This document shows positions 9,001-12,000 of a stretch of DNA of 64,000 nucleotides, in pieces; the first letter of the stretch is position 1; each line of letters starts with the position of its first letter. This DNA comes from Escherichia coli. GTDB taxonomy: Bacteria > Pseudomonadota > Gammaproteobacteria > Enterobacterales > Enterobacteriaceae. Where the stretch lies: NCBI RefSeq assembly GCF_016026235.1, contig NZ_CP065613.1. One strand, 5' to 3'. The position numbers are program-made.

Positions 9001-12000
9001 CTCCCCGGCAGCCTTCAGGGAAAAATATCATCAGATGGCTGCTTAAAAAAAGAACAAATGGTAGTGTCCGCTATTGCCAGTACACCTCACCATAATTTTA
9101 TTAGCAGAGACTTTATCGTTTGAAAAACAACGATAAGCTGCCTTTGTTTCACTCCAGGTACGGCAGGAAACAGGAATACTTTCTTCTGGTGAACGACTGA
9201 GGCTATTGAGGATATGTTTTACTCTTTTATCAAGTCTTGAGTCCCCTATATCCAGTGATTTTAGCTCCTGAATAACCCAGTTTTCCATAACACCTCTGAA
9301 ATAATCTCTGTCTTTTCAATATAATACTATTATTTCAACTTGTGGGTAAGGGTATGAGATGCGAAATGATGATCGATAGTGATGCGAATAAGTGTTCGAT
9401 TCAGATGCGATTATGCAATATGATTTTATGTGTGTTGCTTAATTATCATATTTCTTGCCCGTTCCCCGCCGCGCAGATCCGGTTTCCGGCTGAAGTGGAT
9501 ACAGACCTGATTTGTTTCTGAGTATCGGTAAAAGTGCGGCTTATAAGCTATTCTGAAACATGGCAAGTGAATCTGGGCGGTATAATTCCGGCAAATGTCA
9601 TCTGTATTTAAAGGACGTGTGAGTATGAAATTTCTGGAATGTGCTGTCCGGGATGTGATTTATGGGACCAATGTCCGTATTGTCAAACCGGTCAACATTT
9701 ATGAATGTGAACTCAGGGACAACGTGTTTGTCGGCCCTGAACCGCCCCGGGAATCCTGGAGACTAAACTTCCTGAGAAAGAGGTAAACAGGATGACTAAA
9801 AATACTCGTTTTTCCCCTGAAGTCCGTCAACGGGCAGTCCGTATGGTTCTGGAAAGTCAGGGCGAATATGACTCACAATGGGCGACAATTTGTTCCATTG
9901 CTCCAAAGATTGGCTGTACGCCGGAGACTCTGCGTGTCTGGGTTCGCCAGCATGAGCGGGATACCGGGGGCGGTGATGGAGGGCTCACCACCGCTGAACG
10001 TCAGCGTCTGAAAGAGCTGGAGCGTGAAAATCGTGAAATGCGCCGCAGTAACGATATCCTTCGCCAGGCTTCCGCTTATTTTGCGAAGGCGGAGTTCGAC
10101 CGCCTCTGGAAAAAATGATGCCACTGCTGGATAAGCTGCGTGAGCAGTACGGGGTCGGACCGCTATGCAGCGAACTGCATATTGCCCCGTCAACGTATTA
10201 CCACTGTCAGCAACAGCGACATCATCCGGATAAACGCAGTGCCCGTGCGCAGCGCGATGACTGGCTGAAGAAAGAGATACAGCGCGTATACGATGAAAAT
10301 CACAAGGTATACGGTGTAAAGTCTGGCGTCAGTTGTTACGGGAAGGTATCAGAGTGGCCAGATGCACTGTGGCACGTCTCATGGCGGTTATGGGACTTGC
10401 CGGTGTTTTCCGGGGTAAAAAGGTCCGTACGACCATCAGCCGGAAAGCCGTTGCCGCAGGCGACCGCGTAAACCGTCAGTTCGTGGCAGAACGACCTGAC
10501 CAGCTGTGGGTGGCTGATTTTACTTACGTCAGCACATGGCAGGGCTTCGTCTATGTGGCGTTCATCATTGATGTGTTTGCCGGATACATTGTGGGGTGGC
10601 GGGTCTCATCGTCCATGGAGACGACATTCGTGCTGGATGCACTGGAGCAGGCGTTATGGGCCCGTCGACCGTCCGGCACGGTCCATCACAGTGATAAAGG
10701 TTCTCAGTATGTATCGCTGGCCTACACACAGCGGCTTAAGGAAGCCGGATTACTGGCATCAACAGGAAGTACAGGCGACTCGTATGACAACGCGATGGCG
10801 GAGAGCATCAATGGTCTTTACAAAGCGGAGGTAATACACCGTAAGAGCAGGAAAAACCGTGCAGAAGTGGAACTGGCCACACTCACGTGGGTGGACTGGT
10901 ATAACAATCGACGATTGCTGGAAAGGCTGGGCCATACTCCTCCGGCAGAAGCAGAAAAAGCTTATTATGCTTCCATCGGAAACGATGATCTGGCAGCCTG
11001 AGTTCACAGATAAAACACTCTCCAGGAAACCCGGGGCGGTTCACTCGCACCTCCGCAGTCCTCAAACAAGTCTGGCTGGTAGCTGTAAACAGACTTCGTA
11101 CATACCGCTCTGCAATAAATCCCCGTAGCACAGGCCTCACAGAACTTCTTCCCATGAAAAAACTGCTCACACATCACACAATGCCACTCCAGCACGACCG
11201 GTAATGGTGATAAAAACATCGCCATATCCTCAATGTAAGGGTGGGACTTTTCCGGATTCAGCACCACACAGTCCGCCTTCTGTTGCTCGCTCAGGGCATG
11301 TAAATCGTGCTCAAACCATGCCCCCTGAGCATCTGTCTGCAGAATTAACCGGCCATGACAGGAAAGGCAGAAACAATGCCGGATATTTCTGCTGAGCGCA
11401 GAGTCGGCACTGATAATGTGCTCACCCGGCGTGATCCCCAGCCCCGTTTTTATACCGTTCATTCTGCTACCCCCTCCTCACTGAAGCGCCCGGTCTGGCA
11501 GTGTGTGCAGTACCGCTCCCCATAATAATCGTGGTGACATTGTCTGCAGTGCCAGCTGGCTTTACGCACCACGGGTAAGGCATCCGGGACGAATTGCTGC
11601 AGACGTTTAATCAACCGTATTTCTCTGCGTTCCGGCCTGACATAAGGACATTGCTGCGCGTGCTCCGTCAGCCCGTCGTCAGTGTGTTCAAACCAGAGCC
11701 GTTCGGTGTCGTATTGCGGGTGGTATCTGAGTGCACTGCCGCAAAGGTGGCAGGTGTAGTGGGCATAAGGAGCAGTCTGTGCGGTACGGGCACCGATCAG
11801 ACGTCCGTTGCCATCAAGTGCGAGAAAAGATTTTGCGTACATAGTATATGTTCCTCTGCGCCAGACGACACGCAGGCAACAGCCGTCCCGGTACTGGCAG
11901 CGTGGTCAGGTGTGAATGGCGGTTTTCAGTTCAGTCTCAGAAGGGAAAATCAGTGTGGTCGCTGTGAACACATCATCACACTAAGGTCAGATAAGTCGTC

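Follow-up and report, generated by a model that had tools for sequence, protein, structure and literature searches.

The IS629 copy and its surroundings

The DNA analyzed here (hereafter the window) was a 64,000-nucleotide stretch of the Escherichia coli contig NZ_CP065613.1 (RefSeq assembly GCF_016026235.1). A copy of IS629, a member of the IS3 family, is located in it between the remains of an acyltransferase gene and a zinc-ribbon gene. The features at this locus are listed below, with positions numbered from the first nucleotide of the window; the two other insertion sequences served as neighboring controls.

7827..9089, + strand: IS3-family element (1263 bp; neighboring control), 3-bp duplication CCA intact, inserted in an IS4/Tn5-type transposase remnant
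9625..9737, + strand: 5' stub of the gene for a hexapeptide-repeat acyltransferase (150 aa when complete), of which 37 codons plus 2 nt remain, severed by the left end of IS629
9738..11043, + strand: IS629 (IS3 family), 1306-bp variant (4 bp deleted internally) whose two terminal inverted repeats are intact, without a target-site duplication
9792..10118, + strand: orfA, 108 aa, HTH_Tnp_1, intact
10073..10189, + strand: ALIL pseudoknot (Rfam RF01497, 120 bits against a gathering score of 50), intact
10115..10471, + strand: orfB' (truncated), 118 aa (67 native and 51 out-of-frame residues), starting in the -1 frame relative to orfA
10333..11001, + strand: displaced 3' part of orfB, a 222-aa ORF in a frame different from that of orfB', with the DDE (rve) catalytic domain
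11004..11462, - strand: zinc-ribbon gene with an IS-encoded tail, 152 aa, DUF7828 and Zn_ribbon_11, residues 1-140 native
11459..11842, - strand: second zinc-ribbon gene (127 aa), intact and belonging to the native module
12009..12614, - strand: YagK/YfjJ gene (inovirus Gp2 type), intact and belonging to the native module
12910..15673, - strand: IS66-family element (2764 bp; neighboring control), 8-bp duplication GTTTACTG intact, absent from the uninterrupted locus

The boundaries of IS629 were defined by exact terminal matches. The left end (TGAACCGCCCCGGG...; in longer form, TGAACCGCCCCGGGAATCCTGGAG...) starts at 9738, and the right end (...CCCGGGGCGGTTCA; in longer form, ...CTCCAGGAAACCCGGGGCGGTTCA) stops at 11043; each was encountered once in the window, with zero occurrences expected by chance. 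The ends are thus intact, as the initial annotation had stated, and the span that it had given (9625..11062) covers, besides the element, the stub at its left and a few bases of the gene at its right. Over 100% of its length, the copy was 99.5% identical to IS3-family copies of 1306 and 1310 bp that are present in many E. coli genomes. As in the IS629 of Shigella and pathogenic E. coli, it has the terminal repeats, orfA with orfB following in the -1 frame, the ALIL pseudoknot, and an rve domain. This pseudoknot stimulates the programmed -1 frameshift of IS3-family elements. In two respects the copy departs from those relatives: it is 1306 rather than 1310 bp long, the 4-bp deletion having broken orfB so that neither an intact OrfB (296 aa) nor an OrfAB (404 aa) with the rve domain is encoded, and the 3-4 bp duplication seen elsewhere is missing. 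The latter is a trait of the history of the insertion, not of the element itself. The copy is best classified as a defective member of IS629, of which we take IS1203 and IS3411 to be isoforms.

The lesion in orfB was located by aligning the window copy with four others, three of 1310 bp and one of 1306 bp. Four bases (alignment columns 579-582 of the IS) are missing between 10315 and 10316, changing GGTGTGCGTAAAG to GGTGTAAAG (GGT[GTGC]GTAAAG), so that the intact copies read ACGGTGTGCGTAAAGTC where the window reads ACGGTGTAAAGTC; since the deleted bases are flanked by GT, their position is uncertain by at most 2 nt. A change of frame near 10318 had been noted initially, and it proved to be this real loss, with orfB still broken after realignment; the reference that had been given for it (GTGTACGTAAAGTC) contained one wrong base, although the net deletion of 4 bp and its position were correct. 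OrfB breaks after residue 67, and the 222-aa ORF downstream was matched by Pfam rve, rve_3, and rve_2 and by NCBIfam transpos_IS3 (positions 159-369). The deletion uncouples the DNA-binding N-terminal part from the DDE domain. Because a full-length OrfAB would require two frameshifts, we infer that this copy cannot supply transposase; it could presumably move only with transposase provided by another IS629.

The locus is situated in an aerobactin region. Positions 81..7146 of the window align collinearly with the iucB, iucA, and MFS genes annotated in E. coli SCPM-O-B-12142 (L001), with iutA outside the window; the right part of the window contains Ag43, a type II secretion (gsp) gene cluster, sslE, and glc genes. 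The iuc operon, the adjacent MFS (shiF-like) gene, and the IS-rich surroundings are those of a SHI-2-type island; no tRNA genes were found in the 64-kb window, and a location at selC was therefore not observed. Since published inversions, mediated by IS629 and IS1 around SHI-2, unlink this island from selC in some species (PMC1550401), the missing selC does not exclude common descent with SHI-2. The island is probably an aerobactin island of the SHI-2 type. It shares with the SHI-2 and SHI-3 islands of Shigella (PMC1550401) the iuc operon, the MFS gene beside iucA, and a dense IS content, as does the E. coli relative L001, and it differs from them in having a 1.5-kb local deletion rather than an inversion and in the Ag43, type II secretion, sslE, and glc genes at its right.

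The uninterrupted locus and the missing DNA

The DNA flanking IS629 ends in ...gtcggccc on the left and begins with ctcgcacc on the right (in longer form, ...GTCGGCCC and CTCGCACC). Neither the 3-mers (ccc vs. ctc) nor the 4-mers (gccc vs. ctcg) are duplicated, in agreement with the initial report of flanks without a shared direct repeat. Refining the boundaries cannot rescue a 3-4 bp duplication because the two flanks stand 1,511 bp apart in uninterrupted loci (see below). Other, normal copies of IS629 carry 3-bp duplications (GCA, CAT, and GTG). In four O157 genomes, a duplication accompanied only 21 of 47 IS629 sites, the other 26 being without one (PMC3271280); a copy that lacks its duplication is therefore common for this element.

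An uninterrupted form of the locus was found in E. coli 2016C-3878 (L015), beside a tRNA-Phe gene. The order there is integrase, hypothetical gene, IS4/Tn5 DNA-binding remnant, acyltransferase (150 aa, Hexapep), YagK/YfjJ (188 aa), YagK/YfjJ fragment, zinc-ribbon (141 aa), zinc-ribbon (127 aa), Gp2-type gene, and hha. Window positions 9090..9737 correspond to L015 5801..6448 at 99.4% identity, and 11043..12909 correspond to L015 7959..9824 at 98.6%. The flanks of IS629 map to L015 6448 and 7960, in the same orientation and in the same island allele, and the IS exactly fills the gap; it thus replaces 1,511 bp of contiguous native DNA located exactly between its two ends. Eight further uninterrupted loci were retrieved by an exact look-up of the reconstructed native 141-aa zinc-ribbon protein. 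The same two end points were present in seven of them (L024-L027 and L029-L031), and the eighth (L028) matched the right flank only. In 4,259 collection blocks, the listing had the uninterrupted gene order and a zinc-ribbon protein identical at 140 of the 140 residues shared. These comparisons show that the ancestral module comprised the IS4/Tn5 remnant, the acyltransferase gene (150 aa), YagK/YfjJ (188 aa), the YagK fragment, the two zinc-ribbon genes (141 and 127 aa), and the Gp2-type gene. The comparison with related genomes that the initial annotation had proposed thus defines the loss as 1,511 bp.

This segment held the last 112 codons (the last three-quarters) of the acyltransferase gene, the YagK/YfjJ gene, the YagK/YfjJ fragment, the spacers, and, at its right edge, the final Thr codon and the stop codon of the zinc-ribbon gene. 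The 37-codon N-terminal stub on the left had been recognized from the start, and its parent gene, then left unidentified, can now be named: the full gene, L015 6336-6788, is annotated as "acyltransferase" and has a Pfam Hexapep match. On the right, the effect is slight. The native zinc-ribbon protein has 141 residues and ends in ...EDCGGAST, of which Thr141 and the stop alone were lost. The right end of IS629 contributes one base of the Ser140 codon, 12 full codons (encoding the tail EPPRVSWRVFYL), and a stop. The gene is essentially intact, a 12-residue IS-encoded tail having replaced the last residue. The initial annotation was correct in assigning the stop codon to the IS; its figure of 13 codons holds if the split Ser140 codon is counted and is otherwise 12. 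Its description of truncated genes on both sides was apt for the left flank and overstated for the right, where one codon and the stop are gone.

Distribution of the junctions and of the defective IS629

At least 24 contigs, from assemblies made independently, have a gene call for the chimeric 152-aa zinc-ribbon product. Eight of these loci were fetched; seven carry both junctions of the window, and one (L012) carries the right junction only. One of the seven (L009) matches the window at 99.97% identity across 12 kb. The deletion is therefore real and is common to a lineage rather than recent. Among strains with these junctions, the IS copies differ as follows.

Window, L009, and L018: IS of 1306 bp, mutually identical
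L011: IS of 1306 bp, with six differences relative to the window copy
L007, L008, and L013: IS of 1305 bp that has the 4-bp deletion, also lacks 1 bp at IS position 414, and carries a T at position 6 of the left repeat
L010: IS of 1309 bp, in which a substitution patch (544-582) restores the four bases
L014 and L012: IS of 1310 bp, orfB intact

L014 retains the T at position 6 and otherwise equals L012, the two copies differing only at IS positions 6 and 81. The left flank of L012 is wholly different, consisting of an IS66 element that adjoins iutA. This replacement of a flank, together with differences from L014 that are confined to positions 6 and 81, places a crossover inside the IS. The mosaic of single-nucleotide differences is the signature of crossovers and conversion tracts within the IS, and homologous exchange between IS629 copies has acted on this one. 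The pattern also indicates that the 4-bp deletion was removed and re-introduced at this locus through gene conversion between IS copies.

The 4-bp deletion was also found away from this locus. Of the 5,456 E. coli records matched by a 70-bp probe spanning it, only 12 matched perfectly, and 14 fell in the band of at least 99% identity. The three probe matches that were inspected represent two strains, both of which carry invasion plasmids. The sites of the 1306-bp variant that were inspected comprised a pINV copy beside ipaH4.5, a large-plasmid copy near icsA, and a chromosomal copy; a prophage copy also has the 4-bp deletion, for a total of four loci besides that of the window. One of these four has a clean GCA duplication. 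The deletion is thus not private to the window copy and marks a subtype of IS629 that is shared with enteroinvasive E. coli. The restriction of this variant, within the E. coli collection, to strains bearing pINV suggests, along with the content of the aerobactin island and the published behavior of SHI-2 (PMC1550401), a Shigella-type source for the window. More tentatively, the 1306-bp form may be a non-autonomous sub-family that spread in the Shigella/enteroinvasive E. coli lineage by means of the transposase of intact copies, a reading to which we give somewhat less than even weight.

Origin of the deletion

With flanks that are collinear with, and non-adjacent in, the native module, the feature is best read as a non-autonomous IS629 resting on the scar of an IS629-associated deletion. 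The initial annotation had proposed either an adjacent deletion or recombination between two copies, and the absence of 1,511 bp from exactly between the IS ends supports that pair of explanations. The route that we prefer, with a confidence that is about even, is recombination between two direct copies. In this scheme, IS629 would have inserted in the ancestral module, and a second copy in the same orientation would have been acquired at a distance of about 1.5 kb, for which a local hop of the first copy is the simplest source. Homologous (RecA-type) recombination between the two direct copies would then have left a single copy, removing 1,511 bp of native DNA and leaving each remaining flank with half of a different target duplication. 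The spacing of the flanks in native DNA, the intact ends without a duplication, the neighboring insertion sequences with theirs, and the mosaic within the IS are all consistent with this sequence of events. It is preferred because exchange between IS629 copies is directly visible at the locus. Two insertions in the same orientation within 1.5 kb are nevertheless unlikely a priori unless IS629 hops locally. Synthetic junctions representing a single IS629 insertion at either site had no match among 5,426 complete E. coli genomes, and none of the contexts of the chimeric 152-aa zinc-ribbon protein or of the 53-aa stub ORF retains the missing genes, nor was a two-copy intermediate found among them.

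For a one-step deletion driven by transposase, too, no intermediate was found among the same 5,426 genomes or the contexts of the junction proteins. Here, IS629 would have inserted once, at either of the two sites, and one of its ends would then have acted on a target at a distance of 1.5 kb by an aberrant strand transfer or cleavage. The DNA in between would have been lost and the IS retained, possibly with the help of end-joining of the type associated with the IS-excision enhancer. A single insertion suffices in this case, and the deletion, a small one, lies flush with an intact end of the IS; deletions adjoining IS629 have been documented with the IS-excision enhancer (PMC9943667). Against it, the microhomology at the inferred joints amounts to only 1-2 bp, and copy-out-paste-in transposition alone should not delete donor DNA (bioRxiv 10.1101/2023.06.07.543989). 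The one-step deletion is a serious contender that ranks nearly as likely as two-copy recombination, and the outcomes of the two would be indistinguishable in sequence. Far less probable is a derivation from the arrangement in L001, where IS629 has an additional 242 bp on its left and 232 bp on its right that microhomology-mediated deletions would have removed. The order and orientation there are the same (aerobactin, MFS, Tn5 remnant, stub, IS66 remnant, IS629, the 232 bp, zinc-ribbon), the right flank of the IS begins with CTCGC as in the window, and the 6-bp string ACTCGC is present at both right-hand endpoints. A target preference of IS629 was considered as the cause of the shared CTCGC and was rejected, as the literature reports that none was found (PMC3271280). 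The right module of L001, however, is a different allele, with 36 evenly spread differences in 880 bp (4% divergent) as compared to about 10 in the same stretch of L015, and its proteins are those also encoded by a pic-island module in an enteroinvasive E. coli. In that pic-island module, an IS629 in inverted orientation is joined to the same site with the junction TTCA/CTCTCGCG, which shrinks the shared start to 3 bp; on the left side, the microhomology is only 2 bp. On account of the divergent right allele and the sharing with the pic island, L001 was rejected as a direct precursor by way of an ACTCGC microhomology deletion, and it looks like an independent IS629 join between two islands.

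An exchange of flanks through recombination with a distant IS629 copy (by inversion or translocation) rather than by a local deletion is more doubtful still. Exchange of this kind occurs at this copy, as the IS66 element next to iutA on the left of L012 attests, and IS629- and IS1-mediated inversions around SHI-2 have been published (PMC1550401). A distant partner is unneeded, however, when both flanks of the window derive from one module, have the same orientation, stand 1.5 kb apart, and are closest to the same allele. Virtually no weight is given to a simple insertion with a missed or decayed duplication, which is refuted by the 1,511-bp separation of the flanks in uninterrupted loci, or to an assembly artefact, since identical junctions are present in many independent assemblies. 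The small IS629 deletions of O157 (Ooka 2009 and Kusumoto 2011, as cited in PMC9943667; Rump 2011, PMC3271280) likewise have intact IS ends, loss of adjacent DNA, and no duplication; the difference lies in the background, which in the window is an aerobactin island inferred to be of the SHI-2 type. IS-associated deletion scars of this kind are already well documented in Shigella and pathogenic E. coli, and the present one is ordinary in that respect. The IS150-associated rbs deletions of the long-term E. coli evolution experiment reportedly have one endpoint at a resident IS and are attributed to a fresh insertion close by and subsequent IS-IS recombination. They too involve an IS3-family element; unlike the present case, in which the route is deduced from comparative sequence, they were seen in real time in the laboratory.

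The practical consequence is mainly for annotation: this IS629 copy should be flagged as unable to supply transposase. The locus records the loss of an acyltransferase gene and a YagK/YfjJ gene (1.5 kb in total) from an aerobactin-type island through one IS629 copy, and it is a clean example of a missing target duplication that needs to be checked against uninterrupted relatives. It is also an illustration of lesions being shuffled by gene conversion among the IS copies of IS-rich pathogens. If the 1306-bp form is indeed a non-autonomous sub-family, the IS629 of these genomes would be a mixed population of drivers and passengers, in which gene conversion repeatedly breaks and repairs individual elements.

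Placement of the aerobactin island

The right part of the window contains the following features:

22028..25303, Ag43/Cah autotransporter
25418..27940, 840-aa ORF
34722..44645, type II secretion gene set (GspD, F, L)
46279..50856, SslE metalloprotease
51324..57334, glcA, glcB and glcF

The 840-aa ORF returned zero matches at E<=1e-8 in an NCBIfam search. No tRNA gene was found across the full 64-kb window. The right part of the window corresponds to the region after pheV in E. coli K-12. From the Ag43/Cah, type II secretion, SslE and glc content, together with the lack of a tRNA gene in the 64 kb, the aerobactin island was placed next to the post-pheV region, not selC.

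Insertion elements flanking the IS629 locus

Two other elements were delimited around the IS629 copy:

7827..9089, IS3-family element, 1263 bp, orfB of 272 aa
12910..15673, IS66-family element, 2764 bp, 8-bp duplication GTTTACTG

The IS3-family element, left of IS629 and presumably IS600-like, has an intact 3-bp duplication (CCA). It lies within the DNA-binding remnant of an IS4/Tn5-type transposase, which it divides into 7096..7875 and 9043..9288. Other strains have another IS in the interval between 7827 and 9212. The IS66-family element lies to the right of the zinc-ribbon module; the uninterrupted locus lacks it. The tnpC reading frame of this element appears to be broken: the 371-aa ORF matches the 387-position profile only up to position 208.

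Rearrangements at IS629 in other strains

In E. coli SCPM-O-B-12142 (L001; 4649..4890 and 6201..6432), the aerobactin island, represented by the stub and an IS66 remnant, is linked by IS629 to a zinc-ribbon module that is otherwise seen in the pic (SHI-1-like) island (L036, from enteroinvasive E. coli; 5232..6020). In the latter, a truncated, inverted IS629 abuts the same site as the L001 IS629. Judged from these sequences, the L001 arrangement appears to be a fusion of two islands that IS629 mediated independently. The IS629/zinc-ribbon junction of the window recurs in GCA_002968215.1 (L012; 6462..12459), where an IS66 element followed by iutA and iucD lies on the other side of IS629. The aerobactin operon there is inverted relative to the window, an arrangement consistent with an IS629-mediated inversion.

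Apparent exchange among IS629 copies

The 1306-bp IS629 with the 4-bp deletion was also located in the enteroinvasive E. coli chromosome and pINV (L003, L032, L033 and L034), with sites in the recE/gam region of a prophage, within yadC, adjoining ipaH4.5 and close to icsA; a GCA duplication flanks one of these copies. The distribution suggests either trans-mobilisation or a lesion that spread via gene conversion. The IS629 copies at the window's locus were compared in three other assemblies (L010, L012 and L014) over IS alignment positions 6-1064, and conversion tracts were found within them. L014 and L012 carry an intact, 1310-bp IS629 at the same junction as the window. In L010, a short divergent patch (544-582) restores the four missing bases, and a 1-bp deletion at 414 is retained. 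On this sequence comparison, exchange with other copies apparently both repairs defective IS629 elements and breaks them again.
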